64,000 nt of DNA from a virus (IMGVR_UViG_3300043010_000145); one strand, 5' to 3'. Positions 20-40,135 are shown, counted from the stretch's first letter. Made by a program: numbers and translations. The notes: generated by a model not told the origin, from the letters alone.

Positions 20-475
20 GTGAAAAATTTTTGGAAAATCCTGATTGCCATAATCGTTCTAGTATTAGTATTTGTATTTACTGTCTGGACACCGCTGTTT
101 CATCAAGATAAAGTTGTTAATACAACCAATCACAGCATGTATGTAATTGTAAAGATTGATGATGCAGAAGAATTAACAGACAACTGGCTGGAATTATCGG
201 ACGGCAGATATGTGTATGCACAGAACGGACAGCCTTGGCAAGTAGCATCGGATGAAGAAGTAGATATTACCAAAGTATCTCTTGCAGGCACTACATCTTC
301 ATACACGGTATACGGTATGAAAGACTATGAGGAAACGGATATTATCCACAATGACGAAACCGAAATCGAATACTCTAAGGAGTTTGGTAAGCGAGTTACC
401 ACTTATAAAATTGTAGAATCTAATTCCCTTACTTTTGGCAAGAATGCTACCGAAACAGATTCCGCCGATGACTAA
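20..475 (+). CDS. Hypothetical N-terminally membrane-anchored acidic protein
   Basis: GAGG RBS before GTG; N-terminal basic + hydrophobic helix; followed by terminator. Confidence 0.75.
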   Translation: MKNFWKILIAIIVLVLVFVFTVWTPLFHQDKVVNTTNHSMYVIVKIDDAEELTDNWLELSDGRYVYAQNGQPWQVASDEEVDITKVSLAGTTSSYTVYGMKDYEETDIIHNDETEIEYSKEFGKRVTTYKIVESNSLTFGKNATETDSADD

Positions 476-508
476 AAAAAAGCAAGCAGCTACGCTGCTT
501 GCTTTTTT
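474..508. terminator. Bidirectional intrinsic terminator (ends gene 20-475 and the minus-strand mini-CRISPR transcript)
   Basis: A-run, AGCAAGCAGC-tac-GCTGCTTGCT hairpin, T-run. Confidence 0.85.
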
Positions 509-510
509 CT

Positions 511-633
511 TCTCGGTCTTTTGCCAGTATAGAACAAAGTCAGGAAACATCCCCCGCCCGTGCGGGGCAAATAGGCCTTGTACAGATTGCATACTTTTAG
601 CATAGGAAACATCCCCGCCCGTGCGGGGCTAAT
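511..633 (-). CRISPR. Orphan type I-E-like mini-array 1: repeat (605-633), 32-nt spacer (573-604), repeat (543-572), ~32-nt terminal spacer (511-542) running into the terminator
   Basis: Minus-strand repeats ATTAGCCCCGCACGGGCGGGGATGTTTCC and ATTTGCCCCGCACGGGCGGGGGATGTTTCC have the I-E layout (5 nt + CCCCGC/GCGGGG stem + 8-nt handle) and a 32-nt spacer; no cas genes in window. Confidence 0.85.
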
Positions 634-653
634 AAATTCCACTGGCAACTAAA

Positions 654-794
654 CAAGTAAAGCATTGCAGTAAACGTGCACTTTTACTGACCTATATCAT
701 TTGCTAGCTTTAAATGATGTAGGATTTCCCTGCATATGCTCACTTGATTGTTTCTTGCATAAGCAACATAATGTATAATGCTTTTACTTGTATG
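654..794 (-). ncRNA. Conserved structured leader RNA, copy 1, upstream of mini-array 1
   Basis: Homologous to 39725-39868; closing stem CAAGUAAAAGCAUU/AAUGCUUUACUUG enclosing three hairpins and a degenerate repeat GTGAGCATATGCAGGGAAATCC. Confidence 0.7.
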
Positions 795-799
795 ATTAA

Positions 800-827
800 A
801 GTATACCACTAAAATTACAATAAGCAA
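800..827 (-). promoter_or_regulatory. sigmaA-type promoter for leader RNA/mini-array 1
   Basis: TTGCTT-16 nt-TATACT with extended TG; GTGGTATACTTTAA shared with the promoter at 39690-39718. Confidence 0.7.
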
Positions 828-900
828 GAAGAATATGAAAGTTTAGCTAAATTTTTTCAGTACATTTTAAGCAAAAGCACAGTTTTCAACTGTACTCCTT
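824..900. repeat. ~77-bp direct repeat, copy A (minus-strand terminator + start of -35 region)
   Basis: GCAAGAAGAATATGAAAGTTTAGCTAAATTTTTTCAGTACATTTTAAGCAAAAGCACAGTTTTCAACTGT nearly identical to 1548-1625. Confidence 0.9.
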
Positions 901-998
901 TTCTTCTTTCTTTTTTCTCTCTTTGCTCTCTTTTACAGTACTCTATTTTTGTACCGAATGCAATTTTACAAAAAAAGACCTTATCCTAGTCGATAAGA

Positions 999-1496
999 TT
1001 AGTTCAAATAATAAGCATCAGATACTTCTTTAACGATTTCTCGTACAGATTGCATACTTTTCGTGTAGCTATACGGATTATGCACCAAGCTGAAACTCTG
1101 CTTTCCGTGTAGTTTTAAGGTATGCCCAACCATTTTCTCTAAGGTTTTTCTTTCCTTTTGCATACCGTTGTCATCACCATACAACACATCTTCTTTTACA
1201 GCTTGCATGGTTTTCTCAAAGTACTTTGCATTTTCAGCTTGCTGAAAATGTTCTTCTAATGTAAGAAGTTTTGCAAAACCTTTCTCTAAATGTATGAGCT
1301 GTCCTTTGAGAACTTTTGCGGCTGCTTCATTCAGATTGGTTAAATCGTAACTTCCGCTAGTTTCTTTGTAAACTCCTTCGTATTGCTCCTTGCTTACATT
1401 TCTATTTACAGGCAAGAAATAGCGGCCAGTAGTAGTTTCCAGAACGACTTTAATGGGGTATTGTTCTTCAATTTCTTTTGTAGTAGTTAGCATCAA
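999..1496 (-). CDS. Hypothetical protein (165 aa); its 3' end is matched by the mini-array 1 spacer
   Basis: GAAAGGAG RBS; flanked by the 77-bp direct repeats. Confidence 0.8.
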   Translation of the reverse strand: MMLTTTKEIEEQYPIKVVLETTTGRYFLPVNRNVSKEQYEGVYKETSGSYDLTNLNEAAAKVLKGQLIHLEKGFAKLLTLEEHFQQAENAKYFEKTMQAVKEDVLYGDDNGMQKERKTLEKMVGHTLKLHGKQSFSLVHNPYSYTKSMQSVREIVKEVSDAYYLN

Positions 1497-13783: not shown

Positions 13784-15340
13784 TTGGTGATTCTTGTGAT
13801 ACCAGAAATCGGATTGGATATTTGGGCGAAGAATACAGACCGTAACCGCTATATGCAAGAAAGTTTTCGACCTACATTCACAAGATACGTTTGTGGAAAT
13901 ACAGAGGACGAGTATAACGATGTGTGTGCTTCATTAAATGCACAAATAAAATCACATCAAGAGATTACGGTATTCATCGAGGGAAACCCAGTCTTTGAGC
14001 CTGATTTGTCTGTTTTACAGCAGCTAAAATCAGAGCTTCCTAAAATGAATCTGTTAAATTTAACAAATGATGATTTAAGGCTCTTTACAGATGATAGAGT
14101 AAATACTTTATTTTTGCGAGCTTTAAATTTCTTATTGAAAGAGCAAAAACTTGCGAATAAATCTGCACAAGAAAACTTTGTTAGTACAATCGTTGTCTAT
14201 GCTCTTAGATACTTGCCAAAGTTGAAGTTTTCCGATGAAGAAACCTGCAAAGTTGTGCAGTACGGTACTTGTGATGATAGAGGAAAGAATTTTCTTTATC
14301 TTTGTCATTTAATGGGTATGGATGTGGTTAGCTTAACACCAATGGTGGATAACGATACTTGGCCTTCTATGTGTCAAGTCATTAAATACAATCGCATGCT
14401 TCGTCAATATCCATGGGAACAAAGATGCAAACTCGGAGTTGTTCATAACCAATACCAAACTTCCACTAGTTTAGCTGCTAAGAATGTGCAGTCTGTCCTT
14501 TTTGAAGGTGATACAAATTTCCGTCCTTGGAGTTTTCGAGAAGCTACAATCGAGCCTACTCTTTTAATTTCCACAGAAGCGGATATTGATATTTCTTGGA
14601 ATGAGCAAGCCCGTATGCGAGAAGGTTTCAAAGCAAGTGTTGAGCAGAAGATTTGTGTAATTCCGCATTTCTTTTATCTCTATGACGGTATCTGTAACGA
14701 TATGAATGTATATCGTGAGAAATTGCACCGTGCAACACATGTGAAAACTTGTTGTTTTGATGCCGTAGGTGGTAAGAAATTAGCTAAGCCGATACCTTCC
14801 TCTATTGCTGCAAGATTGATGTCTCAGGGTATGCAAGGAAAAGTATTCTCCTTAGACAAACTTTGGAGATTAGACTGGTATCCGTATACAGATTTGCCTG
14901 TTGATACACAACAACGAATTATTGGTGTTATCAATAAAATTATGGAAAACGGCAGACATATCTACCGTGGAACTTTAGATGAGCATTCCAAAGCAACCTT
15001 TGTAAGTTATGCTTTCGGTTTAAGCGATACAATTCTGAGTATGATTGACAATTTTGATTGTCCGTATGATGTGCCAAAAGTTGTCTTGTTATTGCAAGGA
15101 AAAGCTTTTCTTGATGACGGAACTTGCTTAATTCTTGGCTTGCTTTCACTTCTTGGCTTTGATATTGCGGTATATTCACCAGCAGGGAGAAGTGGTTTGT
15201 TGAAAGTGATTTCTTCCGAACAATGTTGCCATTTCCGTGGGGATAGAACTGTAACAGATTATCAGTTGCAACTTCCACCAGAACAGCAACCGCAACAAGA
15301 ACAGAAACGAAAAAGCTGGTTACAGGAGCTATTCGAGTGA
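13784..15340 (+). CDS. YceG-like protein (ter/yce stress cluster)
   Basis: FRPWSF, W.E.ARMREGF, FD.P..VPKVV, GFDIAVYSPAG motifs; linked to TelA and TerD as in the B. subtilis yceC-H operon. Confidence 0.75.
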   Translation: MVILVIPEIGLDIWAKNTDRNRYMQESFRPTFTRYVCGNTEDEYNDVCASLNAQIKSHQEITVFIEGNPVFEPDLSVLQQLKSELPKMNLLNLTNDDLRLFTDDRVNTLFLRALNFLLKEQKLANKSAQENFVSTIVVYALRYLPKLKFSDEETCKVVQYGTCDDRGKNFLYLCHLMGMDVVSLTPMVDNDTWPSMCQVIKYNRMLRQYPWEQRCKLGVVHNQYQTSTSLAAKNVQSVLFEGDTNFRPWSFREATIEPTLLISTEADIDISWNEQARMREGFKASVEQKICVIPHFFYLYDGICNDMNVYREKLHRATHVKTCCFDAVGGKKLAKPIPSSIAARLMSQGMQGKVFSLDKLWRLDWYPYTDLPVDTQQRIIGVINKIMENGRHIYRGTLDEHSKATFVSYAFGLSDTILSMIDNFDCPYDVPKVVLLLQGKAFLDDGTCLILGLLSLLGFDIAVYSPAGRSGLLKVISSEQCCHFRGDRTVTDYQLQLPPEQQPQQEQKRKSWLQELFE

Positions 15341-17298
15341 GTAAGTTAACATTAGGAAGCTTATTTGACGGTTCAGGTGGTTTTCCTCTTGCAGCTGAAT
15401 TATCAGGTATTAAATCTGTATGGGCTTCCGAGGTTGAACCGTTTCCCATAGCTGTTACTAGGAAAAATTTTCCAAATATGAAACAGTTGGGTGATGTGCG
15501 GAAAATAGATGGTGCAAAGATAGAACCCGTAGATATTATTACTTTTGGTAGCCCTTGTTTTCCAAAAGGTACACTTGTTCTTACAAAGAAAGGCTATGTA
15601 CCTATTGAAAAAATTTCTACGGAAGATTATGTACTTACACATACAGGAAATTGGCATAGAGTACTTCAGACTGGTTCAAAAGAGGCAAATACTGTTCTAT
15701 TGCATGGCTGCCATCAAGGTTTGGAATGTACACCAAATCATCCAATTTATTCTGCTGAGCTTATCTCTAAGAAAGCAATAGAGGGTACAAATACATATTT
15801 TGTGAATGAACCTACTGCGGAACATACTTGGCTGGCTGCTAATGATATGTTGGGGAAGTTATGGGCTGTACCAAAATGTATTAAAGAAATTGTAGCTATG
15901 CCTAGAGATTTTTCTTTTGATGAAATGCATGAGTTTGGTTTTTCTATTACTGAAGATTCTCACTTAGAATCTTGGATTTATACTATGTCTACTGATTTAC
16001 AGCATGCATTATTAAAAGGTATTATAGATAAAGTTGGTTCATATGAAGCAGAAAGCACATTTCAGCTTGTATTTAAATCACATCATCTAGCGGAGTCTAC
16101 ACGTTTACTCGCTGAAATATTGAATTATTCAACTACTGTTTCTTATTATGATAATTTATACCATTTGCTTATTGCTAGAATTCGTCCTGAAACAAGATGT
16201 GATGATAATTTGCATTCTTGGTATTTGGTGAATGATATTGAAAAGCTTGCGTACACTAAAACCGTATATAACTTAGAAGTTGAAACGGATAATAGCTATA
16301 TTGCAAATAATATTGTTGTACATAATTGTCAGGATTTGAGTGTTTCAGGTAAGCGTGCTGGTTTAGAAGGTAAGCAATCAAGCCTTTTTCTTGAAGCAAT
16401 TCGTATTGTAAAAGAAATGCGGGAAGCAACAAGTAATACCAAACCTAGATATATTGTTTGGGAAAATGTTTGTTTTATAAAAGATACTCTGATTACAACA
16501 CCAAATTCGTATGTACCAATTCAAAATATACATATTGGAGATATGGTTCGCACACATAAGGGTACATTTGAACAAGTGCAAGGTGTACAGTGTACAAAAA
16601 ATGTGCCAACTTATACTTTGTCTACTTTATCAAATACTGTTACTGCAACTGGTGAGCATCCTTTTCTTGTTCGGAAGAAAGATAGTAAGCCAGTTTGGAA
16701 GGAGCTTTCTAAGATTTCTGAAAATGAGTATATTTCATATACATTGAATGATTCTAATCTTGCACATATATCTGATTTACTAAATAACATACTTACTAAA
16801 CATACTTCTGCTAATTCCACAGATTATTTTATTTCTGAGAATAGATTGTGGGAGAAAGTTGTTTCAGTAAAGCATGCAAGTATTCAAACTGTATATAATA
16901 TAACCGTAGAAAGAGAACATACATATGAAGCAAACGGTATCACAGTTCACAACTGCGGAGCATTCTCAAGCCATAACGGAGAAGATTTCCGAACCGTCCT
17001 CGAAGAAATTGCAAAAGTCAAAGACCCCGAAGTTTCAATACCTAAATCTGAAAAGTGGGAACAGTCCGGCTGCATCATGGCAGACAATTACAGTATTGGA
17101 TGGCGAGTTCTCGATGCTCAATATTGGGGAGTTCCCCAAAGAAGAAGCAGAGTCTTCGTTGTCGCAGATTTTGCTGGAACAGGTGGCGAAGAAATATTAT
17201 TTAAGTCCGAAGGCCTGTCAGGGTATTCTGCGGAGGGCTTTAAACAAAAACAAGAAATTGCCAAACAATATGGCAGAGATTCTTCAAAAACAGGCTAA
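15337..17298 (+). CDS. C5 cytosine DNA methyltransferase, N-terminal part (motifs I-VIII), with two inteins
   Basis: LFDGSGG, GSP|CQ, WENV, QRRSRVF; lacks motifs IX-X. Confidence 0.9.
   Translation: MSKLTLGSLFDGSGGFPLAAELSGIKSVWASEVEPFPIAVTRKNFPNMKQLGDVRKIDGAKIEPVDIITFGSPCFPKGTLVLTKKGYVPIEKISTEDYVLTHTGNWHRVLQTGSKEANTVLLHGCHQGLECTPNHPIYSAELISKKAIEGTNTYFVNEPTAEHTWLAANDMLGKLWAVPKCIKEIVAMPRDFSFDEMHEFGFSITEDSHLESWIYTMSTDLQHALLKGIIDKVGSYEAESTFQLVFKSHHLAESTRLLAEILNYSTTVSYYDNLYHLLIARIRPETRCDDNLHSWYLVNDIEKLAYTKTVYNLEVETDNSYIANNIVVHNCQDLSVSGKRAGLEGKQSSLFLEAIRIVKEMREATSNTKPRYIVWENVCFIKDTLITTPNSYVPIQNIHIGDMVRTHKGTFEQVQGVQCTKNVPTYTLSTLSNTVTATGEHPFLVRKKDSKPVWKELSKISENEYISYTLNDSNLAHISDLLNNILTKHTSANSTDYFISENRLWEKVVSVKHASIQTVYNITVEREHTYEANGITVHNCGAFSSHNGEDFRTVLEEIAKVKDPEVSIPKSEKWEQSGCIMADNYSIGWRVLDAQYWGVPQRRSRVFVVADFAGTGGEEILFKSEGLSGYSAEGFKQKQEIAKQYGRDSSKTG
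15556..16326 (+). mobile_element. Intein 1 (257 aa, degenerate LAGLIDADG remnant) inserted immediately before the catalytic Cys
   Basis: CFPKGTLV...CTPNHPI...LLKGIIDKVG...VYNLEV...VVHN|C. Confidence 0.9.
16471..16953 (+). mobile_element. Intein 2 (161-aa mini-intein) inserted after the ENV motif
   Basis: CFIKDTLI...ATGEHPF...VYNITV...TVHN|C. Confidence 0.9.
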
Positions 17299-17953
17299 TG
17301 CACAGATAGATAATGATATACAAATATGTGGTACAGTTTCAGGAGTGGCATTTACTCAAAATCAACGAGATGAAGTGAGAATTTTAGGAGATAAAGTTGG
17401 TGCTCTGGCTGCACATTCGGGTTCACATCAAACGAATTATATCTTGCTTTGCTCTGAGCCACCCAATGAAGTTGTTTCGGGAAAGCCTATTGTGGCTACT
17501 TTAATGGCCAGTCATGGTAAAAAGTGCTATCTTGGTAATCAAGATTCTTTTTCTGGTGATTATTTCTTCAATCAACCTTTGTATATTTATAATGAGGAAA
17601 TGAATAGTGTATCTGAAACAGATATTCGTATTCGCAAACTTACACCTAAGGAATGTGCTAAATTACAAGGATTTCCAGAAAATTGGGCATCAAATTTAGG
17701 TGTTGCTAATCCCACGGAGGAGCTTATACAACAAAATCAGAATATATTCAGTATATATGCAGCCACCATAGGAAATGCAGGTAAAAAGAAAACAGAAAAG
17801 CAAATTCGTAAATGGCTTGCTAATCCACACAGCGATACAGCTGAGTATACAATGTGGGGCAATGGTGTTGCATTACCTTGTGTGTATTTCATTATGGAGG
17901 GTATTGTTTGGCATGCAGCCCAAGGAAATGCCGAATATAATTTAGAAATTTAG
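16925..17953 (+). CDS. C5 methyltransferase C-terminal part (variable region + motifs IX-X) fused to an alternative-frame peptide; likely start near ATG 17114
   Basis: SLSQIL...KYYLSPKACQGILRRA; RKLTPKECAKLQGFP; WGNGVALPCV; overlaps the upstream ORF in another frame. Confidence 0.8.
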   Translation: MKQTVSQFTTAEHSQAITEKISEPSSKKLQKSKTPKFQYLNLKSGNSPAASWQTITVLDGEFSMLNIGEFPKEEAESSLSQILLEQVAKKYYLSPKACQGILRRALNKNKKLPNNMAEILQKQANAQIDNDIQICGTVSGVAFTQNQRDEVRILGDKVGALAAHSGSHQTNYILLCSEPPNEVVSGKPIVATLMASHGKKCYLGNQDSFSGDYFFNQPLYIYNEEMNSVSETDIRIRKLTPKECAKLQGFPENWASNLGVANPTEELIQQNQNIFSIYAATIGNAGKKKTEKQIRKWLANPHSDTAEYTMWGNGVALPCVYFIMEGIVWHAAQGNAEYNLEI

Positions 17954-17972
17954 AAAGGAAATTTTTTACTCT

Positions 17973-19190: not shown

Positions 19191-19299
19191 ATTTTAAGCA
19201 AGGCAATTTCCCGCCTTGCTTTTTCTTTTTCAAAGATTTTTCCATTTCAAAAAAATCTATATTTAATAGAACAAATAAGAAAGGAAGATAAACCTATTT

Positions 19300-20535: not shown

Positions 20536-20548
20536 TATTCTTACATAG

Positions 20549-20602: not shown

Positions 20603-20744
20603 CTTCTTCGGGAAAGGACTTGCTTTGTTGTATAATAGTAATAGAAATATTGTTAGGTAAGCATACTCTAACTCATACCAATTGTATGTTGCACTGAGTA
20701 TAGGCATGACCTTGAAATGTTTAACATTAGAGAGGGTATTAGCT

Positions 20745-22672: not shown

Positions 22673-24218
22673 GCCTCTATCGTTTTCTACAACAATTCGA
22701 AATCCAGAAAGAATTCCTAAATTTTTAGCTTGTATATTACCGTATGAGAATGAAATACTTACATCAGAGATTATACATGAAATTGTTAAGATGCTTATAC
22801 GAGAGAAAGAATATAGACCGAGATATATTTTAGAAAATGATGAATTAAAAGCAATATATAAGGATTCAGATAAGACATATTCAGATAAGCAAATTGAAAC
22901 TATAATTAAGTATTCACCACAGAAACATAAAGAGGCTGGGTTTAAAAGTGGGTGGGATTCTAGATTTGATACATGGTATAAGATGTTAAAGGAACTTGGA
23001 TTTATAAAATATAAAATGGGTGCACCAATACAAATTACTGAAACTGGACATATGCTTATTGATGACTTCAACGATTCGTCCTCGAATAGCACAAAAACAA
23101 GATTAGTGTTCTTAAATGCATTAATGAAATACCAAACAAATAACCCACTTAGAAAAATCTCAAATGAAAATGCACCTTTGCCTTTACTATTAAATGTTCT
23201 GAAATATTTTAAAGAAGATGAAGAAGAAACAGATGCAGGTATTGCACGCCAAGAATTACCTATACTTATTTGTTGGACAAATAATGATGCAAAGGCAGCT
23301 TATCTTTATATAAAGAATATGCGGAAAGAGGTAGGTTTTAAGTATTCTGACGAGTATATTTATGATAAGTGTCTTTCTATTTTAGGTAATAATAATAAGA
23401 AATATTTGAAAATGAGTAAGATATGTCATGAATCTGTGGACGAATATATACGCAAAATGAGAATGACAAATCTAGTTTCTTTAAGAGGAAATGGTAGATT
23501 TTTAGATATTAATAGTTTTGAATGGGCTACTGTAAATTATATAATTGAAAATTACACAGATTACCTAAAATATGAGGATGAGGACACGTATATTGAATAT
23601 ATGTGTACCATAGATAGTAAGCTATTTAAGTTTGATGCACCACAACAGTCAAATAGTGCTGATGTTAAACAAAAGACACTATATAAGTATGCATCTACTT
23701 TAAGTACTGATGTTGTGCAAAAAGAACTTAAATTATTGTGCAAAAAGCAAGAGAGTACAAATGAGCTTTTCCGTTTTATTCCACCAGCAACTCGTTTGGA
23801 ATTCTTAACAAGTATTGTATTAGTCCAATGCTTTAAGTCATTAGATGTTAAGCCAAATTATGCTGTTGATGACGAGGGCTTACCTACATTTACTGCTGGC
23901 GGTGGCCTTGCAGATATAGAGTGCACCAGTAAAGATTACACAGGGTATGTTGAGGTAACATTACAATGTAGCAAAGTTAATCAAGTAAATAATGAGATAA
24001 TACCTATTTCTAGACATTTATTAGAAGCTAAACAGAATCATGAACAGCCTATGTTTACTATTTTATTAGCACCTAATATTCATTCAGATACAAAAGAAGC
24101 AGCTGATTGGCAAAGATATAAGTATGGTGCGGATATAAGAACTGTGGCTATGCCTGAGTTTTTAGATACTATACATAACAACAAAGATATAGAACTTGAA
24201 CAGGTTGGGAAACAGTAA
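22653..24218 (+). CDS. AlwI-family type IIS restriction endonuclease
   Basis: PLSFSTTIRNPERI, DDEGLP...GGGLADIEC...VEVTL; paired with two MTases. Confidence 0.8.
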   Translation: MAKRKFKPLSFSTTIRNPERIPKFLACILPYENEILTSEIIHEIVKMLIREKEYRPRYILENDELKAIYKDSDKTYSDKQIETIIKYSPQKHKEAGFKSGWDSRFDTWYKMLKELGFIKYKMGAPIQITETGHMLIDDFNDSSSNSTKTRLVFLNALMKYQTNNPLRKISNENAPLPLLLNVLKYFKEDEEETDAGIARQELPILICWTNNDAKAAYLYIKNMRKEVGFKYSDEYIYDKCLSILGNNNKKYLKMSKICHESVDEYIRKMRMTNLVSLRGNGRFLDINSFEWATVNYIIENYTDYLKYEDEDTYIEYMCTIDSKLFKFDAPQQSNSADVKQKTLYKYASTLSTDVVQKELKLLCKKQESTNELFRFIPPATRLEFLTSIVLVQCFKSLDVKPNYAVDDEGLPTFTAGGGLADIECTSKDYTGYVEVTLQCSKVNQVNNEIIPISRHLLEAKQNHEQPMFTILLAPNIHSDTKEAADWQRYKYGADIRTVAMPEFLDTIHNNKDIELEQVGKQ

Positions 24219-24293
24219 GTTCTAATATTGTTTAAATCAAAGTTTTCCTATATTTCCTATTCGTGCAGAGTGTATTTCTACTTCTATTCCATA

Positions 24294-24346
24294 AAGAGTA
24301 AGTACTCACTTACTCTTTTTTCGTTTCTACAAGAACTGTTTGCCCG
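24294..24346 (+). repeat. ~54-bp direct repeat, copy B, right of RM cassette
   Basis: Matches 20549-20602 with one indel and one substitution. Confidence 0.9.
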
Positions 24347-24411
24347 TATTTTTGGAAAAAATATGGAAACTAGTATAATAAAAGCATAGAGAAGAAAGGA
24401 CGGTTTGAAAT

Positions 24412-25110
24412 ATGCTTAATTTCACCGAATCTGCATCAAGCGGTTTTAGTGGCAATTCTGCCTTAGACCTTGATATTACAAAACAAGACTTATCTTTGGA
24501 CCTTTCCAAAACTCCTACATACTTAAATAAAATTTATGTTGGTGCTTCTTGGGATGCTCCAATTTTTGACTCACAGGGGGAAAGTTATGACCTTGACCTT
24601 ATCGCTGTATTCCTGAATGCAAATGGAAAACTGCTAGGTTTCAATCGTGCCAATGTACAAACAGCTATTAAGGGTATGCTTTGGTATCACAATCCAACAG
24701 CTCCGGGTATGCGATTCACAACTGGCGACAACCTAACAGGTTCTAGTGCACAAAATCGTATGAATACTGCAACAGATGATGAGGAAATTGAAATCTGTTT
24801 GAACGAAGTTCCAGCAGATTTGTGCAAAATTGTCTTCTGGATTGACATTAACGAAATCAGAGGAACAGGCCCTGCTATGTATAAACTGAGCCAAACGTTC
24901 GGACAAATCGAAAATGCACGAATTACTGTCTATGACGAAAATAAAAATGTACTGGCTCGTTTAAATCTGAATCAGGACTATGTAACAGACACAGCAGTTT
25001 GTGCGGGACAGTTAGAAAGAACACCGTCAGGCTGGGAATACAATGTTGTAGATGCTAAAAATCGTCATGGTATTTTTGATGTAAACGGCATTTGGCAGCA
25101 ATACATCTAA
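24412..25110 (+). CDS. terD: TerD-family stress protein
   Basis: VGASWD, DLDL, GDNLTG...DDEEIEI, FGQIENA. Confidence 0.85.
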   Translation: MLNFTESASSGFSGNSALDLDITKQDLSLDLSKTPTYLNKIYVGASWDAPIFDSQGESYDLDLIAVFLNANGKLLGFNRANVQTAIKGMLWYHNPTAPGMRFTTGDNLTGSSAQNRMNTATDDEEIEICLNEVPADLCKIVFWIDINEIRGTGPAMYKLSQTFGQIENARITVYDENKNVLARLNLNQDYVTDTAVCAGQLERTPSGWEYNVVDAKNRHGIFDVNGIWQQYI

Positions 25111-25129
25111 TTTTGAATGAGGAAACTTT

Positions 25130-25768
25130 ATGAGCATGTTAGACCTTGACCTCACAAAAGTTGAGGGTATCGACCTTACCAAAGGTGATTTATTAGACTT
25201 ATCCAAAGGTGGCTTAGAGACACACAAGTTACGAGTCGGAGCTGGCTGGAACTGTGTTGAGCGAGAAATGGGTTCTTTTATGGGCTTTCTGTTTGGCAAA
25301 ACACAAATGCTAGACGTAGACCTTGACCTTATTGCTGTTCTTGAAGATAAAAATGGCAGAGAACTCGAACGAGTTTACTTCAACCATAAGACGGATAGAC
25401 ACAATGCTATCCGTTTGGATAAAGATGACCGCCAAGGAGAAGCGGTAAGAATCAACATCGACTACCGTTGTACAAATACTTGCAAAGATACAGAAAACAT
25501 GACCGTTATCTTATCTAACTTGCCTGACAATGTACAGCATGTACGATTTGCCGTAGCCATTTATGATGAAAATACATTCCGTGATGTTCCACAAGCTTAT
25601 TGCAAACTTGTAGATGAAACAGAAGGACGGGTATTATGTAGTTTCAAAATGTCCGAAGACGGCGGAAGAAACAAGTCCATTCGTATGCTGACTTTACATA
25701 GAGCTGGCACAAGCTGGACTTTGGAAGCTATTGGTGAATACACACCAAATCGTTGGAACAATGTGTAA
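25130..25768 (+). CDS. TerD/TerZ-family stress protein
   Basis: VGAGW, DVDLDL, VYFNH, DDRQG, WTLEAIGE. Confidence 0.8.
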   Translation: MSMLDLDLTKVEGIDLTKGDLLDLSKGGLETHKLRVGAGWNCVEREMGSFMGFLFGKTQMLDVDLDLIAVLEDKNGRELERVYFNHKTDRHNAIRLDKDDRQGEAVRINIDYRCTNTCKDTENMTVILSNLPDNVQHVRFAVAIYDENTFRDVPQAYCKLVDETEGRVLCSFKMSEDGGRNKSIRMLTLHRAGTSWTLEAIGEYTPNRWNNV

Positions 25769-25797
25769 TTCATAGATACAGAAAGGAAAATAGATTT

Positions 25798-28431
25798 TTG
25801 ACAAAAGAAAATTACGGCTTGACCACCGAGCAAGCCGCAGAGAGCAAGAAGAAATACGGGACGAATGCTCTTTCTGTTAAAGAAGGCGACAGTTTCTGGA
25901 AAATCTACTTAGGTACTTTTGAAGATACTTGGATTCGTATTCTCTTAGCTGCTGCAATTATCGACTTATTGATTTATGTACTTGGTATTTTCTGGCCTCA
26001 GTATTTCTCTGGGGATTTAATTGAAGTTGCTGGTGTAGTATTTGCTATGCTTCTTTCTACGGGAGTTTCTGCTCTGACAGAATGGAAGAACAACAAGCAA
26101 TACAACACACTGCAAGCAGAAGCAAGTAAAATCAAGACAAAAGTATATCGTGACGGGGAACTTCACGAAATGCTTATTGACGACCTTGTAAAAGGAGATG
26201 TAGTTCTGCTTCAAGCAGGCGACCAAGTACCAGTTGACGGTTTAATTCTGAAAGGTTCTTGCGAAGTTTCACAGGCTGCCTTGAACGGAGAAAGTGAACC
26301 ATGCAAGAAAGAAGTAGCACCTGAAACCTTAGACCGAGATACGATTGATGAAGATTATGTCAATCCATACTGGGTATATCGTGGTTCTGTTATTACAGAA
26401 GGTGAAGTACTTGTCGAAGCTCGTGTAATTGGTGATTCTACTGTATTAGGTACGATTGCTGATGCCATTGGCGAGAAAACAAAACCTAGTCCGTCTGCTG
26501 AAAAAATGGACAAACTGGCTGGTTCTATTGGTAAATTAGGCTTATACGGTGCAACATTAGCTGTTATTGCTAACATTGTCATTACTCTTATGAGTGCGGA
26601 CTTATCTACTTATACAATCGGTTCTTATCTGTCCTTGGGTATTGCTAACTTAATGCTCTTTGTTGCTATTATCATTATGGCTGTACCAGAAGGTTTGCCA
26701 ATGATGAACAGCCTTGTTGCAAGTATGAACTGTGGACGAATGATTAAAGAAAATGTACTCGTTCGCCATGCAGAATCCATTGAAACAACAGGGTATATGA
26801 ATGTATTGTTCTCTGATAAAACAGGAACAATTACAAAAGGGCAACTCGAAGTAGTAGATATCATTGATGTAAACGGAAATGTAGTTCCAGCTGCTGACCG
26901 TATCAACCAAGATAATGTGATTGCACAAGAACTTGTAAAAGGACTTGGCTTGAACAATGATGCTATGGAAGCAGACGGAAAAGCTATTGGTTCTAACGGT
27001 ACTGACCGTGCATTACTGAACTTCTTGATTGAAAATGATAAATATGAAACTCTTGACCGTTCCCTTGTTGGCGAAAAAGAACCATTCACATCTGCTACAA
27101 AATGTGCAAGAGTGCATACACCAGACGGTATTTATTGGAAAGGTGCACCAGAAGCTGGCTTAGAAGTTGCTAAATATTGCATGTACGATGATGGTGTAAT
27201 TAAACCATTGAACAATCATCGTATGGAACAGATTACAAAAGCAATGAAAGACCAAATGGGCAGAGCCATGCGACTGCTTCTGATTATGAAAGAAACACCG
27301 GGCTTTGAATCACCTATCTTCTTGGGTATCGTATGTATTCGTGATGAAGTTCGTCCTGATGTAGTTCATACTGTTGAGCAAATGAACACAGCAGGCTGTG
27401 CCGTTGTTATGGTTACAGGTGATTCTGCTGATACTGCACAAGCTATTGCAAGAGATGCTGGCATTTTAAAACACGAATCTGATGTAGTTTTAACTTCCAA
27501 ACAACTCGCTGCCATGTCAGATGATGAAGTAAAAGAAGTATTACCATTCCTTCGTGTTGTAAGTCGTGCTAGACCAATGGATAAACGTAGATTAGTCCAG
27601 CTTGCCCAAGACATCGACATGGTTTGCGGTATGACGGGTGATGGTGTCAATGATGCTGCCGCTTTATCTGCTGCTGATGTTGGCTTTGCTATGGGTGACG
27701 GAACTTCTGTTGCAAAAGATGCTTCTGACATCGTTATTGTTGACAACTCTCTGACTTCTATTGGAACTGCTATGAAATATGGTCGTACTATGACAAAATC
27801 AGTCCAGAAATTCTTGATTTTCCAGCTGACTGTCAATATTACAACTATTCTGATGAATGTACTTGCACCATTCTTAGGCTTCTCCGAACCATTTACAATC
27901 GTGCAAATTCTCTGGATTAACTTAATTATGGATACACTGGCTGCTCTTGCTTTTGGTGAAGAACCAGCCTTAGACAGATATATGGACGAGAAACCAGTTT
28001 CCCGCAATGCTTCTGTATTAACACATTACATGAAGTCCTCTATTGGAACTGCTGCTATCTATATCGCTGTTATTTCTGTATTAGGTTACTGCACAAACTG
28101 GCTGAATACTTATCTGTCAATCAGTACAGACAAGGGTATTCGTAGTTTTGTATTCTGCACATTCATCTATGCAGTAATCTTCAATGCATTCAATACTCGC
28201 TCTTCCGATTACAACATCTTCGAGGGTATTACGAAAAACAAGAAGTTCCTCTATGTAATGGGTTCTATCTTTGTTCTGCAAACTCTCTTAATCTATGTAG
28301 GCGGAGCCGTATTCGGTACTGTACCAATGGATGCTCAAACATTGCTTGCAAGCATTGGACTTGGTTTCTTAATTATTCCAGTTGATATGGTTAAGAAATT
28401 TATCTATAAACACTTTGTAAGCGAAGAATAA
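25798..28431 (+). CDS. Ca2+-transporting-type P-type ATPase (likely TTG start at 25798)
   Basis: NGESEP, AVPEGLP, DKTGT, KGAPE, MVTGD, TGDGVND, QILWINLIMDT; GAAAGGA RBS. Confidence 0.9.
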   Translation: MTKENYGLTTEQAAESKKKYGTNALSVKEGDSFWKIYLGTFEDTWIRILLAAAIIDLLIYVLGIFWPQYFSGDLIEVAGVVFAMLLSTGVSALTEWKNNKQYNTLQAEASKIKTKVYRDGELHEMLIDDLVKGDVVLLQAGDQVPVDGLILKGSCEVSQAALNGESEPCKKEVAPETLDRDTIDEDYVNPYWVYRGSVITEGEVLVEARVIGDSTVLGTIADAIGEKTKPSPSAEKMDKLAGSIGKLGLYGATLAVIANIVITLMSADLSTYTIGSYLSLGIANLMLFVAIIIMAVPEGLPMMNSLVASMNCGRMIKENVLVRHAESIETTGYMNVLFSDKTGTITKGQLEVVDIIDVNGNVVPAADRINQDNVIAQELVKGLGLNNDAMEADGKAIGSNGTDRALLNFLIENDKYETLDRSLVGEKEPFTSATKCARVHTPDGIYWKGAPEAGLEVAKYCMYDDGVIKPLNNHRMEQITKAMKDQMGRAMRLLLIMKETPGFESPIFLGIVCIRDEVRPDVVHTVEQMNTAGCAVVMVTGDSADTAQAIARDAGILKHESDVVLTSKQLAAMSDDEVKEVLPFLRVVSRARPMDKRRLVQLAQDIDMVCGMTGDGVNDAAALSAADVGFAMGDGTSVAKDASDIVIVDNSLTSIGTAMKYGRTMTKSVQKFLIFQLTVNITTILMNVLAPFLGFSEPFTIVQILWINLIMDTLAALAFGEEPALDRYMDEKPVSRNASVLTHYMKSSIGTAAIYIAVISVLGYCTNWLNTYLSISTDKGIRSFVFCTFIYAVIFNAFNTRSSDYNIFEGITKNKKFLYVMGSIFVLQTLLIYVGGAVFGTVPMDAQTLLASIGLGFLIIPVDMVKKFIYKHFVSEE

Positions 28432-36197: not shown

Positions 36198-36941
36198 CTA
36201 AATATTAAACCCCTCAGGAGCATCAGGCCAAGCAGCCTGATAGAAGGCCATCTTACCATTTTCATCAAAGAAGAGGCGAAAAGCACCATAAGGCATATCT
36301 GTTGTATAATCCAGAACCATTTCCTTTTTTCTTGCCTTAGCAAATTCACTCAGTTTAGTTACCAACTCAGCAAAGTCGATATCAGCATACGGAGCACCCC
36401 AAGCAAAGTTCAGTTTGTTGCCCGAACCTTCCATATAGCAATCTTCCAACATATCCCAATTAGCAATTTCTTGCACCGCATCGCTGTCTGCTGTAATGCA
36501 AGCCATACCATCTGTTTCATACTGTACCGCAGAGCTATGTTGTGCAATCACAGACTGGGTATCTACATAATCTTCCAACTTAGCTTCATTCGGCAGCACC
36601 ATAGTATCCCAATCCCAAACAACATCGCAGCCGTACTCATCCTCCTGAGCATAGATTCTTTTAGCGAATGGCAAGCCTAGTTTGTTTTTCTTACCATTGT
36701 CGTGATATTCCGCCACAACTTGCAAGTTCGGGTATAGGGAAGTCATATGAGTAATATGACCAATGATTTCTTGCACATCATTGACACAATACACAAGGTA
36801 TTCTGCCGTAGCATGCAGACAATCATTCTTCAATATTACAGAGGAACAGTATTGTTTGAATTCTCTTTTCATTGTTTTTACTGCATCAAGCACATCGCCT
36901 GTTCCATTTGAGAATAAGTGTATCGTTAAATTCAGTTGCAT
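36198..36941 (-). CDS. Hypothetical protein, paralog of 38542-39243 (start MQLNL after GAAAGGAG)
   Basis: Shared T..YP....IYA and C-terminal G.[FY]R.FF..NGK...Y.A.[WF]PD pattern. Confidence 0.8.
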   Translation of the reverse strand: MQLNLTIHLFSNGTGDVLDAVKTMKREFKQYCSSVILKNDCLHATAEYLVYCVNDVQEIIGHITHMTSLYPNLQVVAEYHDNGKKNKLGLPFAKRIYAQEDEYGCDVVWDWDTMVLPNEAKLEDYVDTQSVIAQHSSAVQYETDGMACITADSDAVQEIANWDMLEDCYMEGSGNKLNFAWGAPYADIDFAELVTKLSEFAKARKKEMVLDYTTDMPYGAFRLFFDENGKMAFYQAAWPDAPEGFNI

Positions 36942-38541
36942 TGTTTTTCTCCTTTCTTGCATCTTCATCTATGTATTTGCAAGTTTTTATCTTTTTCTAT
37001 ATTTATATATTAGCACAGTATAGTTTTATTTGCAAATATTTATTCAATAATTAGTACGATATAGATAAGTACTCGCATAGCAAAGTTCGGGTATTTTCAG
37101 GCGGAGTCAGATTCAGGCGAAGATATGTTTAGCACGAGTTAGCCATACAAAGCAAGTTTCCTTGCTTTGTATGGCTAGGTAGATGAAGCAAGAATTCAAG
37201 TGAAGTGTTCCTCTACAATCAGTCATTATTCCAATTTAGCAATCACCTTTACATAAATTCCCAGCTATGCAAAGCAAATTTATTTTGCTTTGTATAGCTA
37301 ATCGTTCTTACAGAATGATTATTTGGGTATTCTTAGCCAGCAGACATTCACCAGAGCGATTTCTAGGGTCACATGTTACCACTTGTCTTGATTTTTGCTT
37401 AGAGTATATGCTCACGGGCTTTATTTCGTAAAAATGCGGAGAGTGAACTCTCCGCATTTGCAGAAACTCGGAAATTGCACTATTTGGACTTTTAGAAAAG
37501 ATACGGCTTTATCTACTTTTTCTAAGAAAATGTGGCTTAACACACCACGATACTGCCACAGGCAGTTAATTTTTGAGTACATCTTCACTTAACCACATAT
37601 TTTCATCCATCCAAGGATATGTGCAATCCACCTACCAGAAGCAAGGTCTCTTGCTTCTGGTAGGTGTTCTTCGCCTAGCTCCACCTCTGCCTAGCTTTAT
37701 ATCTAAACAAACAAGGGCGGACCCGAAGACAAGCTCATTACATTCGCTTGCTTCTAAACCCGCCCTTGCTTGCCGTAGTTTCTTGCTTGCCGTAGTTTCT
37801 TGCTTGTTGCAGTTTCTTCGCTCCCTTATGGCATCTACTGTGGGGATGCTTGCCATAGCTTTTGCCTGTTGCAATTATTTCTTATTGTATTTTTCACTTG
37901 CTCTATATTTATCTTGCCCACTATTCCTCCTCCCTTTTGCCTGCTTCACTTCATCGGGTATTTTGTAAGCAATTTGTTTTCTAACCTAGCAGATAAGGTA
38001 TATGTACCGAAACATAGCAAGCTATGAATTACATAAGGCAGTAAGCAAAAGTTCGGCGGGTACGACAGTTAGGCGAAGCTGCATTATGCACGAGCCAGCC
38101 ATACCAAGCGAGTTTTCTCGCTTGGTATGGACAGTTAGATGTATGCAGAAACCAAGTGAAGTTGTATCTAAAATCATCCAGTATTCAATACAAGCAATCA
38201 CCTTTATATAAAGTATATTGGGGTATTTTCAAACAGCAGACATTCACCAGAGTGATTTCTAGGTGCACTTATTACCACTTGTCTTGATTTTTGCTTCAAG
38301 TATGCACTCACGAGCTTTATTTCGTAAAAGCTCGGAAACTGCGATTTCCGAGCTTGCAGAACATCAGAAATTGCACTATTTGAGCTTTTAGATAAGGAAC
38401 AACTTTATCTAATTTTTTCTAAGAAAAGACAGTTAATTTCTGAATAAATCTTCTCTCAGCCAAGGAACTTCATCCAGCCAATTCTCGTGCTAGGTAATTT
38501 CTCCGCCCAACAAAAAACCATGCCGAACGGCATGGTTTTAT

Positions 38542-39243
38542 TTATTTCAAATCTTTCACAACTAAATCAGGGAATTCAGCCTTATAAGAATCCACTTTAC
38601 CATTCTTAAAGAAGAATCTGTAATATCCATCCCATGTATCTGATTCCAGTTCCAGCTTAATCATCTTTTCCGTATGCTTGCTTGCTTCCAACAGCAGTCT
38701 CAGCAGCGGTTCTAATTCCAACTCACAGCTTCCGTCATCATAGAAAGTCAGGCATTTGCCAGTCCAGTTGCCATTATATCCATCAGCCATATACTCAGGC
38801 AAGCCAACAGTGTTCAATGCTCTTTTTGGAGCATAGATGCAGCCGCTTACAACTTCAAAAACGGAAGGAATTTCCAACTCAATATGCAAAAGCAGGCATT
38901 TATCCAAGGCAACAAAATCTTTTTCCTTTGGTTCTTTAGGCAGATACAAATAGTAGGTTGCTCTTTTCTTGCCAAGTGCATAAATTACATAGCTGTGGTC
39001 TTCGTGCAAATCCGGGTTGAATGCTTGCAAACTGAACAGCACATCTGGGTATACCTTAGTAATTTCGTCCAGCAGCCAGTTTACCCAGTACTGTGTAGAC
39101 CAGTCCAAGCTTTTGTAATCAGACCAGCTATACGATGCAAAGTTTCTGATAAAATCCTCATTTGGTAAAAGTGATTGAAGTGTGCCTCCCACATTTTCCG
39201 TTTTTTGCGGGTCGGAAAGCAGTTCTAATACATACATTGCCAT
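38542..39243 (-). CDS. Hypothetical protein (233 aa); its 5' end is matched by the mini-array 2 spacer
   Basis: AAAGGAG RBS; terminator at ~38512-38540. Confidence 0.8.
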   Translation of the reverse strand: MAMYVLELLSDPQKTENVGGTLQSLLPNEDFIRNFASYSWSDYKSLDWSTQYWVNWLLDEITKVYPDVLFSLQAFNPDLHEDHSYVIYALGKKRATYYLYLPKEPKEKDFVALDKCLLLHIELEIPSVFEVVSGCIYAPKRALNTVGLPEYMADGYNGNWTGKCLTFYDDGSCELELEPLLRLLLEASKHTEKMIKLELESDTWDGYYRFFFKNGKVDSYKAEFPDLVVKDLK

Positions 39244-39689
39244 TTTAATTAACTCCTTTTATTCATTCTCAGGGTATTCCACCCTCGTCTCTATCTGTAA
39301 TTATCTTACTATATTTTCTATCCTTTTTCAAGTGGTATGTAAGAATATTTATGAAATAGTATAGAATAATTTTATATTCACACACATCTTTGCTCAGGAA
39401 GTTTTTCTAAAAAAACCGCTTGCATTCACCTTCTATCTGTGATATATTATGGTTGCCCTCCGAAGAGGACAGTTATTTTTTTTGGACATGTTAAGACAAA
39501 AGCCACAGCGAATGCTGTGGCTTTTGTCTTTTAGTATTCATATTCTTCATCTTCGTCAGTTTCTACTGGCTCGTAAATCTTATATCTAGGTGTTGCATAT
39601 AGTTTTGCTTTTCATATGTAGTTCTTCTCCTTTTCAACTATTTCAATGTCGTACTAATTTTTTTTGTAAAAATTTAAATCATTTTTTTA

Positions 39690-39718
39690 TTGCATACTTA
39701 TTTTATTTGTGGTATACT
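39690..39718 (+). promoter_or_regulatory. sigmaA promoter for leader RNA/mini-array 2
   Basis: TTGCAT-17 nt-TATACT with extended TG. Confidence 0.75.
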
Positions 39719-39724
39719 TTAAAC

Positions 39725-39868
39725 AGACAAGGAAAAGCATTAGATATTAGGGTGCTTGGGTGAAAAACCTAAGTGAGCCCCGCACGGGCGGGGAAATCCT
39801 ATATTATTTAAAGCTAGCAAAATGATATAGGTCAGTAAAAGTGCACGTTTACTGCAATGCTTTCCTTC
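39725..39868 (+). ncRNA. Conserved structured leader RNA, copy 2, with embedded repeat-like unit at 39773-39799
   Basis: Closing stem AAGGAAAAGCAUU/AAUGCUUUCCUU; hairpins CCUAUAUUAUUU/AAAUGAUAUAGG and CAGUAAA/UUUACUG; GTGAGCCCCGCACGGGCGGGGAAATCC. Confidence 0.7.
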
Positions 39869-39998
39869 TAAAGATGTCAGGCTTGGGAACTAGTATGTCT
39901 TAACTATTCGATTGGAAAACACAGATATGTTGCAAATTTGCGGATTTGTAACAAGGTATACCAAGTTAAGTATGAAAACGGAAAAGCATCTTTCTAGT

Positions 39999-40108
39999 AC
40001 TTGCCCCATAAGGGTGGGAATGTTTCTGTATGTATTAGAACTACTTGTTGACCGTTTGCCCCGCACGGGCGGGGATATGTTTCTTGTTTCAACAATCTAT
40101 ACAAGTTG
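39999..40108 (+). CRISPR. Orphan type I-E-like mini-array 2: degenerate repeat (39999-40027), 26-nt spacer (40028-40053), repeat (40054-40084), short terminal spacer
   Basis: ACTTGCCCCATAAGGGTGGGAATGTTTCT and GTTTGCCCCGCACGGGCGGGGATATGTTTCT; preceded by AT-rich leader ending TTTCTAGT. Confidence 0.8.
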
Positions 40109-40135
40109 GCACTCCGCAAATGCGGAGTGTTTTTT
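40109..40135 (+). terminator. Intrinsic terminator closing mini-array 2
   Basis: GCACTCCGC-aaat-GCGGAGTGT + T run. Confidence 0.85.

Follow-up and report, generated by a model that had tools for sequence, protein, structure and literature searches.

Why would a stretch of DNA whose checked genes include none of a Cas family carry two transcription units that resemble type I-E CRISPR arrays, each with a spacer similar to the gene beside it? The units, here called A and B, lie in a 64,000-nucleotide sequence (IMGVR_UViG_3300043010_000145; the window), and the analysis below follows up a sequence-only reading of that window.

Architecture of the units

The features of unit A and its neighbouring gene are:

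827..474, minus: whole unit, with promoter, leader, two repeats, spacer, trailer and terminator
800..827, minus: promoter, with -35 element TTGCTT (827..822), 16-nt spacer and TG-extended -10 element TATACT (805..800)
652..793, minus: leader RNA of about 140 nt, 79% identical to that of unit B, with a consensus fold
605..633, minus: repeat 1, 29 nt, canonical type I-E geometry, 8-nt tail ATGTTTCC
573..604, minus: spacer, 32 nt, matching 1067..1036
543..572, minus: repeat 2, 30 nt, with one additional G after the stem
542..509, minus: conserved trailer, present as well in one RNA contig (run X3)
508..474, minus: bidirectional intrinsic terminator, with terminator-like partial Rfam matches
999..1496, minus: neighbour gene, an ORFan of 164-165 amino acids by protein and Pfam searches
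1036..1067, minus: protospacer-like site for spacer A in the resident gene (ORF 999..1496, towards its 3' end)

Those of unit B and its neighbour are:

39690..40137, plus: whole unit, with the same order of parts as unit A
39690..39718, plus: promoter, with TTGCAT, 17 nt and TG-extended TATACT
39725..39870, plus: leader RNA, containing an intact repeat hairpin
39871..39998, plus: additional leader segment, common to unit C and at least one further copy
39999..40027, plus: degenerate repeat, stem CCCCAT/GTGGGA, tail ATGTTTCT
40028..40053, plus: short spacer, 26 nt, matching 39235..39210
40054..40084, plus: repeat 2, 31 nt, with two additional nucleotides between stem and tail
40085..40137, plus: trailer and intrinsic terminator (stem 40108-40131)
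38542..39243, minus: neighbour gene, a transcribed 233-amino-acid ORFan with a distant paralogue at 36198..36968
39210..39238, minus: target of spacer B in the resident gene (ORF 38542..39243, codons 3-11), with AAT before it

Both loci are thus where the sequence-only reading had placed them, with their parts in the order it gave; what it took for terminal spacers is instead a conserved trailer, of which a TCTATAC-containing stretch is common to A, B and another copy. A third unit, C, was located about 9.5 kb beyond the window. It has a single repeat, accompanied by promoter and terminator and followed by 51 nt of gene remnant, which is identical to the neighbour gene at 41 of 51 positions and keeps the in-frame tail with its stop codon. 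The -10 element TGgTATACT is conserved across the three units; a simple promoter scanner did not list the promoter of unit A because its -35 element is weak.

Repeat class

The repeat consists of a 5-nt 5' part, a CCCCGC/GCGGGG stem with a 4-nt loop, and the 8-nt tail, and the stem, loop length, 5' part and tail are maintained over six repeats. Its 17-nt core occurs four times in the window and in none of 100 shuffles. It is identical at 24 of 29 positions, with the same stem and 8-nt tail, to the repeat of an array in Saccharopolyspora (L015) that directly adjoins cas2-cas1-cas6e-cas5e, encoding Cas2 (PF09707), Cas1, Cas6e (PF08798) and Cas5. By its geometry, which is exact, and by this similarity to a repeat beside type I-E cas genes, the repeat is truly of type I-E class, as the sequence-only reading had it. 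The Rfam CRISPR-DR models gave no match to the repeats even at E up to 10. Unit A has the canonical 61-nt period (29-nt repeat plus 32-nt spacer), the 26-nt spacer of unit B gives a period of 55 nt, off the type I-E norm, and unit C has no second repeat.

Leader family and copy number

The leaders of units A and B are 79% identical over 189 nt, and a consensus fold of the leaders of A, B and C shows compensatory pairs. In unit A the predicted fold is closed by a stem and contains three hairpins: a variable one, of which one arm resembles a decayed repeat, one of 12 bp with GCTAGC as its loop, and one of 7 bp with GTGCAC as its loop; the minimum free energy z-score is -2.4 in A and -5.0 in B. 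The leader of B contains a repeat that had not been listed before (repeat 39773-39801, hairpin 39778-39793, tail altered); this embedded repeat is intact in B and decayed in A and C. The fold had been described as unrecognised, and no Rfam family matches the leader: nothing in the window passes the gathering thresholds, and only terminator-like chance matches appear at E up to 10.

The additional leader segment of unit B belongs to the family as well: the BLAST alignment of B with C extends through it, and the joint that supports it is present in runs X1, X2 and X3. The conserved leader does not adjoin the first repeat, and leader-repeat junctions vary among units, a placement and variability unlike those of leaders that support adaptation.

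In the source run, X1, the read depth of the leader is about 11 times that of its flanks, which suggests some ten leader copies in the source sample; one further copy in this run has a 32-nt spacer between two repeats. With three units on the replicon and this roughly ten-fold depth, the module is repeated, as the sequence-only reading had proposed.

Transcription

Transcription at the repeats is seen in assembled contigs of RNA libraries, which by their nature carry no information on processing or RNA ends. Contigs from two gut metatranscriptome studies contain the leader family at depths of 100-450, with a depth of 5-10 for neighbouring mRNA and 0 for the promoter-proximal intergenic stretch. 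One contig of run X3 spans leader, repeat, spacer A, repeat and trailer, the whole unit A precursor. RNA contigs of unit B begin downstream of its promoter (39357-39704 has zero cover), and an exact RNA contig (38575-39283) shows that ORF 38542..39243 is transcribed. For the family and for unit A it is shown that each unit's own strong promoter drives a leader-plus-array precursor.

Guides and the neighbouring genes

Spacer A matches 1067..1036 at 25 of 32 positions, 19 of them contiguous, where 0.08 chance matches are expected; the site has AGC as its 5' flank and mismatches at seed positions 3 and 4, and the spacer, when read in frame, gives variant codons of the neighbour gene. Spacer B matches 39235..39210 at 22 of 26 positions and perfectly at positions 1-15, with AAT as the 5' flank; its target lies 6 nt past the start codon of ORF 38542..39243, and its differences from the resident gene include a synonymous CTG/CTA. 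The guide RNAs of A and B have the same sense as the neighbouring mRNA, and all three units have guides related to the adjacent gene. The matches of spacers A and B are far beyond chance. That each spacer matches its own neighbour, the central claim of the sequence-only reading, stands in that the matches are real; they are partial, and the differences can be read as coding divergence. The spacers are better read as deriving from diverged homologues of the neighbouring genes.

Neither relatives nor other alleles of the three neighbour genes were found in the searched databases, nor was a related element. A search of 5.8 billion proteins with the product of ORF 999..1496 returned only itself, and Pfam gave only sub-threshold matches; ORF 38542..39243 had no relatives in the searches run, and is 25% identical to its paralogue in the window. 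Because all three genes are ORFans, no foreign allele with a perfect protospacer was found.

The carrier element and candidate effectors

The element that carries the units is a large restriction-site-free mobile element from animal gut. The window contains no GATC (215 expected) and no GCGC (72 expected), the 20 kb upstream likewise lack both, and genes of the replicon were found on contigs of up to 577 kb. Its gene content is rich in ORFans and in defence and anti-restriction genes; none of the genes identified on it is a hallmark of phages or plasmids. We infer its mobile nature from the absence of the two motifs and from the gene content, by which it behaves like the mobile genetic element that the sequence-only reading had supposed.

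The same reading had reported that no cas gene is present. This holds for the window ORFs checked, in which a Pfam scan and precomputed Pfam matches found no Cas family, and does not hold for the replicon, which possesses two Cas3-HD-only genes and an adaptation-less type I-C system (cas3, cas5d and cas8c confirmed) with two arrays, 14-42 kb beyond the window end. One of these arrays is:

L062:20814-21800: type I-C array, with a repeat unrelated to the type I-E-type repeat of the units

The units lie at least 56 kb from this locus, the only cas locus seen, which is of another subtype; the repeats being unrelated, the type I-C system is an unlikely partner. Its spacer 6 is identical, in frame and at 27 of 34 positions, to the gene directly adjoining that array. 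Huge-phage CRISPR systems without adaptation genes (Al-Shayeb et al. 2020, PMC7162821) resemble the replicon in its type I-C effector module and two arrays; the difference here is a second, unrelated repeat of type I-E class in the units.

About 135 kb (the window and some 70 kb of flanks) of a replicon of at least 577 kb showed no type I-E cas genes, only type I-C and Cas3_HD. Exact-match patterns found no low-GC array with the units' repeat in 185,579 species representatives, in JGI metagenome contigs or in IMG/VR, the source species being absent from the genome collection; no partner effector is therefore known. The proposed search for repeat, leader and type I-E cas genes yielded the third unit and the leader copies, and no cognate type I-E system or array in the places searched. 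No type I-E effector having been found there, the co-option of a Cascade encoded in trans is still something that we infer.

A proposed mini-CRISPR role in exclusion between elements

We favour, with modest confidence, the explanation that a very large mobile element of a Bacillota gut host carries several copies of a cas-less type I-E unit, mini-CRISPR or crRNA-like in kind, with a role in inter-element exclusion. A Cas6e-type enzyme would cut at the base of the repeat hairpins to release a guide with an 8-nt 5' handle, and the guide would load into a type I-E Cascade that acts in trans, encoded either by the host or elsewhere on the element. Guides from diverged homologues of the adjacent gene would then direct interference against related elements with the other allele. 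PAM or seed mismatches would protect the resident allele in A and C; in B, a shortened, PAM-distally mismatched guide might bind the resident allele without licensing Cas3. In favour of this explanation are the repeat geometry and its similarity to a repeat beside type I-E cas genes, the promoter and leader common to three units, the leader depth and the RNA contigs, the guide matches and their coding divergence, the mobile-element character and the guide-beside-gene pattern of the type I-C array. Against it count the failure to find a type I-E cas gene, a matching low-GC array or a foreign allele with a perfect protospacer in the places searched, the leader set apart from the first repeat, and unit C, in which a repeat is joined to a 51-nt gene remnant, something that Cas1-Cas2 cannot make. 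The function of the leader fold is left unexplained, and the perfect seed and AAT flank of unit B on its own gene fit regulation or autoimmunity better than exclusion.

The sequence-only reading had noted that mini-arrays on mobile elements, CreR RNAs and RNA anti-CRISPRs were each described separately. Those pieces are indeed known; it missed the closest precedent, the cas-less viral mini-arrays with leaders of the portogloboviruses SPV1 and SPV2 (Medvedeva et al. 2019, PMC6858448), whose spacers match array-proximal regions of related viruses and whose carrier has a mutated orthologous site. Mini-arrays of phages and prophages are attributed to Faure et al. 2019 where PMC6858448 and PMC11656645 cite it. 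The key feature is thus already published, exclusion between elements has already been proposed for virus-borne mini-arrays, and the units are a bacterial example of cas-less mini-arrays with unusual extras. They share with SPV1/SPV2 the one or two spacers, the promoter-bearing leader, the lack of cognate cas genes nearby, the location on a mobile element (here a probable one), spacers related to genes near the array with the carrier's copy mutated (here diverged), and solitary repeats in the same genomes. In contrast to SPV1/SPV2, the units here are bacterial, with a type I-E repeat, and the element is low in GC and measures several hundred kilobases or more; some ten dispersed units, to judge by leader depth, have a common long structured leader set apart from the first repeat; the guide of unit B is truncated and its seed matches the unit's own gene perfectly; and unit C is fused to a gene remnant.

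Alternative explanations

It is possible, though we think it unlikely, that the units act like the crRNA-like CreR/CreA regulators, so that Cascade with a short or partly matching guide occupies the neighbour gene and represses it without cleavage; if so, expression of the element's accessory genes would be tied to the presence of a host type I-E system. Unit B suits such a role: its first repeat is degenerate, its guide of 26 nt is shorter by one Cas7 step, the 15 PAM-proximal nucleotides match perfectly beside an AAT flank, and its target is just inside a transcribed gene; viral type I-E arrays with 21-24-nt pseudo-spacers act in this way (10.1101/2024.10.29.618823). Degenerate repeats, a shortened guide with PAM-proximal match, and phage- or plasmid-borne mini-arrays, type I-E ones among them, organised as multiplexed transcription units are likewise features of CreA/CreR RNAs (Shmakov et al. 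2023, 10.1101/2023.03.03.530964) and of these viral Cracr arrays. However, Cascade should not bind the resident genes of A and C because of their seed mismatches and, in A, the lack of AAT; a roadblock at the A site, so close to the gene's 3' end, has little effect; and within the ORF it is the template strand with which the guide of B pairs. Known regulators of this kind have promoters as targets and either reside in CRISPR-cas loci or are directed at cas genes of the host. For CreA/CreR and Cracr RNAs the targets are promoters of cas or toxin genes in the host's CRISPR locus, whereas the units lie 56 kb or more from the only cas locus seen and their targets are coding sequences of the element's own adjacent ORFans, with a seed match missing in two of three units and PAM plus seed only in B.

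More speculatively, units and type I-C arrays could be RNA-guided "allele drive" cassettes, in which a guide is linked to the resistant allele of an accessory gene; we hold this improbable. During co-infection the rival allele would be cut, and recombinational repair would copy the resistant allele together with the guide unit, so that array-plus-gene cassettes would spread like free-standing homing endonuclease genes. Such a process, if real, would explain why the spacers of mini-arrays lie so close to their targets, which is published but without an explanation, would make unit C a frozen guide-target recombination joint, and would make the leader fold an added functional RNA. The analogy is with free-standing homing endonucleases and with TnpB/IscB, whose omega RNA guides are read from transposon flanks: a specificity determinant would sit beside a gene, other alleles would be recognised and the resident allele would be immune, and the guide of unit C may be likened to a TnpB/IscB guide in being DNA that flanks the unit. 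Unlike these systems, the units encode no nuclease, and spacers A and B are repeat-flanked rather than flank-derived.

Less probable still is that the units are RNA anti-CRISPRs, decoys that soak up Cas6e and Cascade subunits of a host type I-E system which would otherwise attack the element, with the guides secondary. Strong promoters, terminators, high RNA depth and multiple dispersed copies are all in keeping with this, as are the solitary repeat of C and the additional repeat hairpin buried in the leader of B; the altered stem-tail junctions of the terminal repeats should yield aberrant products. Racrs occur on phages and plasmids as solitary repeat units (Camara-Wilpert et al. 2023, PMC10651486). 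They have in common with the units that a mobile element carries a repeat mimic together with a promoter and a terminator, and canonical-length spacers and a conserved 140-nt fold are peculiar to the units. That fold, the canonical 32-nt spacers and the relation of three guides out of three to adjacent genes are left unexplained by a decoy.

Least probable is that the repeats are relics in decay, or GC hairpins arisen by coincidence, in an unrelated small-RNA family, with no CRISPR function today and with the gene-like stretches as rearrangement debris of tandem paralogous cassettes: the guide of C is simply what is left of the tail and terminator belonging to a paralogous cassette to which the unit is fused, the repeats of B are degenerate, A and C have the leader-embedded one in decayed form, the searches gave no cognate effector, and a terminator scanner also flagged the repeat hairpins as terminator-like, but the parts of the repeat are kept over six repeats, the 29+32 period of A is exact, the repeat is near-identical to that of a bona fide type I-E locus, and RNA contigs read through the repeats.

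Architecture of units A and B

The sequence-only reading had described two homologous units sharing one architecture, and alignment supports it: units A and B are 79% identical across 189 nt, beginning at a TG-extended -10 box (TGgTATACT), and a 17-nt core of their repeats occurs four times in the window but in none of 100 shuffles. The aligned stretch spans a leader of ~140 nt, downstream of which the sequences diverge; past that point, repeats are followed in each unit by a short conserved trailer and then an intrinsic terminator. In the repeat, a 5-nt 5' part precedes a CCCCGC/GCGGGG stem that encloses a 4-nt loop, and the tail ATGTTTCC follows. The layout of unit A is canonical, with a period of 61 nt, and that of unit B is irregular.

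Features of units A and B
827..474, minus: unit A (promoter, leader, repeats, trailer, terminator)
633..605, minus: unit A repeat 1, 29 nt
604..573, minus: unit A spacer, 32 nt
572..543, minus: unit A repeat 2, one extra G
39690..40137, plus: unit B (promoter, leader, repeats, trailer, terminator)
39773-39801, plus: repeat hairpin in the unit B leader, intact
39999-40027, plus: unit B repeat 1, degenerate
40028-40053, plus: unit B spacer, 26 nt
40054-40084, plus: unit B repeat 2, two extra nt

The stretch 39493-39620, between unit B and its neighbour gene (ORF 38542..39243), has a terminator with a 17-bp stem and, next to it on the minus strand, an acidic gene tail that ends in a stop codon and lacks a credible start, perhaps a further gene remnant.

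Unit C and further copies

A third unit was found along a JGI contig (L055) that bears the same DNA, ~9.5 kb beyond the window end.

L055:10909-11290: unit C

Unit C has a promoter as in A and B, a leader 74-77% identical to theirs, one intact repeat and an extra leader segment found in B as well. The 51 nt directly after its repeat match the last codons of the adjacent small gene (L055:10410-10721) at 41 positions and continue in frame to a stop codon, followed by the gene remnant's own terminator. The DNA downstream of unit C resembles the DNA upstream of this gene, which suggests that unit C is located within a one-time tandem paralogous cassette. The arrangement of a repeat plus 51 nt was ruled out as a product of Cas1-Cas2; it has the look of a joint formed by recombination or fusion. 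An 88-nt intergenic stretch near unit C (L055:9593-9678) is 74% identical to one near unit B (window 38276-38361); the two may be members of a further family, of small-RNA or fold-back type.

In the sequencing run that contains the window, contig depth is 326 in the leader core versus 29 alongside, which suggests about ten leader copies. An additional copy from this run has the first part of the leader joined directly to a repeat, after which come a 32-nt spacer and another repeat; its guide has no match in ~135 kb of replicon sequence. No unit besides A, B and C was found in the 9 kb upstream of the window or to ~38 kb past its end.

Repeat class and Cas genes

A scan of one genome per species located an array in Saccharopolyspora that has the same stem and 8-nt tail as the repeat of the units, 24/29 identical positions and a 61-nt period. 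Because the ORFs adjoining this array encode a Cas2 of the I-E kind, Cas1, Cas6e and Cas5, assignment of the units' repeat to the type I-E class can be considered established by sequence comparison as well as by shape. Scans for the repeat pattern in species genomes, JGI metagenome contigs and IMG/VR returned only unrelated high-GC terminators and I-E arrays. The possibility that the repeats are plain terminators was rejected, since RNA contigs continue through them. The repeat of the units avoids GCGC and CGCG; many I-E repeats, by contrast, contain these sequences.

The description of the units as Cas-less holds for the window, where Pfam detected no Cas family among the ORFs scanned, but not for the replicon, which encodes Cas proteins at two places past the window end, the second in replicon sequence L062.

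Cas genes of the replicon
L055:16099-16992 (297 aa) and 17456-18571 (371 aa): tandem Cas3_HD-only genes, 14-17 kb past the window end
L062:20814-25436: type I-C locus with a 13-spacer array, helicase-only Cas3, Cas5d and Cas8c, ~55-60 kb past unit B

The two stand-alone Cas3_HD proteins, encoded ~17 kb from the helicase-only Cas3, may constitute a split Cas3 together with it. The I-C repeat is 33 nt long and ends in the usual I-C handle; because repeat and handle are unrelated to those of the units, the I-C system is not a likely partner and was rejected as such. Spacer 6 of the I-C array agrees in frame at 27/34 positions with the gene that adjoins the array on its left (L062:20177-20210), so a Cas-complete system on the same element shows a guide-to-neighbour relation too. 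In one I-C repeat near the end of the array, an arm is duplicated and the stem shows a compensatory change; a short spacer follows this repeat.

Guide matches to adjacent genes

That the internal spacers of units A and B match the adjacent genes was confirmed, with partial identity. Spacer A is identical to positions 1067..1036 within ORF 999..1496 at 25/32 nucleotides, 19 of them contiguous (0.08 chance matches expected); the resident site has the 5' flank AGC, and guide positions 3 and 4 are mismatched. Spacer B matches 39235..39210, corresponding to codons 3-11 of ORF 38542..39243, at 22/26 nucleotides; positions 1-15 agree perfectly, positions 16 and 20-22 are mismatched, and AAT flanks the site on the 5' side. 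Where guides and genes differ, the pattern resembles coding divergence; one such difference in B, CTG/CTA, is synonymous.

Each of the four guides (those of units A, B and C, and I-C spacer 6) has the sense of the matched gene's mRNA, four being a small number. Action of the A, B and C guides as antisense RNAs was rejected, because RNAs of mRNA sense are excluded from antisense pairing with the message. All three neighbour genes of the units are ORFans: homologue searches returned only the query itself and no foreign allele, an exhaustive HMMER search with the 233-aa neighbour protein of unit B found nothing but the query, and nothing usable on this protein came from the ESM Atlas.

Leader RNA and transcription

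Leader copies A, B and C fold alike (n=3), with a closing stem, a variable hairpin, a 12-bp hairpin with a GCTAGC loop and a 7-bp hairpin with a GTGCAC loop. In B the second arm of the variable hairpin is formed by the repeat hairpin, which has decayed in A and C. Two base pairs are exchanged on both sides with pairing kept, one in the closing stem (U-A to G-C) and one in the 12-bp hairpin (C-G to A-U). Folding energy z-scores are -2.4, -5.0 and -2.1 for this predicted fold, whose conservation among three sequences is suggestive only. Between the conserved part of the leader and the first array repeat lie 35 to 130 nt that are specific to each unit, unlike the arrangement in leaders that guide spacer integration. 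The leader matches no Rfam family, with terminator-like chance hits only. The leader core had no exact match in species genomes, JGI metagenome contigs or IMG/VR, and blast searches with the units found nothing among phage and plasmid records; the coverage of the exact scans is incomplete, because protein look-up places the element in JGI samples.

The unit family is transcribed, and leader and array are transcribed together: a single contig from a gut run spans the leader, repeat 1, spacer A, repeat 2 and trailer of unit A. Two gut metatranscriptome runs from different studies contain exact contigs of the unit B neighbour gene (38575-39283) at depth 5-10, nothing across 39357-39704, and leader-family contigs at depth 100-450, contig depth being a poor measure of expression. 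These RNA data are assembled contigs, which show no ends or processing, and they leave unit B's own array uncovered, which is not evidence of absence.

Precedents and possible function

Cas-less mini-arrays with one or two spacers and promoter-bearing leaders are present in archaeal viruses (Medvedeva et al. 2019, PMC6858448), in which the carrier's own orthologous sites are mutated and the reason for the closeness of spacer and target was called unclear. Phage mini-arrays with spacers targeting adjacent genes of related viruses were reported by Faure et al. 2019 (as cited in PMC6858448), and an exclusion model is summarised in a review (PMC11656645). Viral I-E arrays of crRNA-like RNAs have guides of 21-24 nt (10.1101/2024.10.29.618823), and Racrs (RNA anti-CRISPRs) are the subject of PMC10651486. 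Because cas-less mini-arrays of mobile elements are already published, the core finding is a new bacterial variant of a described phenomenon. Its unusual aspects are a dispersed multi-copy family sharing a long structured leader, the short guide of unit B, whose seed matches one of the element's own genes perfectly, and the fusion of the unit C repeat to a gene remnant.

The observation is real and non-random, and the units are very probably CRISPR-derived. In the best reading, drawn from inference and precedent, they would use a trans-encoded I-E effector to exclude related elements, a proposal that stands, as a whole, slightly on the probable side. Regulation (chiefly by unit B), decoy action and decay of the units are less probable alternatives that are not mutually exclusive. 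If exclusion through a trans-encoded effector is correct, this is a bacterial, gut-associated mobile element that has armed itself with guides for an effector encoded elsewhere; even with inactive units, the locus would document array decay and recombination on a mobile element in a clean form. Three natural variants occur together (a canonical spacer, a shortened own-gene guide with a perfect seed, and a repeat-gene remnant fusion), all accompanied by a conserved, highly expressed leader fold. With four independent guide/adjacent-gene pairs on one replicon, three of I-E type and one I-C, the spacer-target closeness of mini-arrays left unexplained in PMC6858448 becomes directly testable.

Character of the replicon

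The replicon is interpreted as a very large mobile element whose host belongs to the Bacillota. Contigs bearing its genes reach 576,898 nt, and the only lead from the ESM Atlas, obtained with the P-type ATPase, was 'Bacillota'. Hallmark genes of phages or plasmids were not seen on it.

13784-28431: Ter-type cluster (YceG-domain protein, TelA, two TerD, P-type ATPase)

This cluster is interleaved with methyltransferases, of which the region has several, a PARP-like (PARP/WGR) protein and the restriction genes, including that of an AlwI-family endonuclease. The region also encodes HerA- and FtsK-like ATPases, a kinase and giant SpaA-type surface proteins. GATC is absent from the window versus 215 occurrences expected, and GCGC and CGCG occur zero times and once, respectively, versus 72 expected each; the next 20 kb upstream (L064 1-20495) present the same GATC/GCGC picture. 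This depletion points to extreme restriction-site avoidance, which is known from some phages. Two D12-class adenine methyltransferases and the AlwI-family endonuclease are encoded at 20682-24218 of this GATC-free replicon; enzymes of the AlwI type have a recognition site that contains GATC, and the element may be intrinsically immune to its own enzyme.
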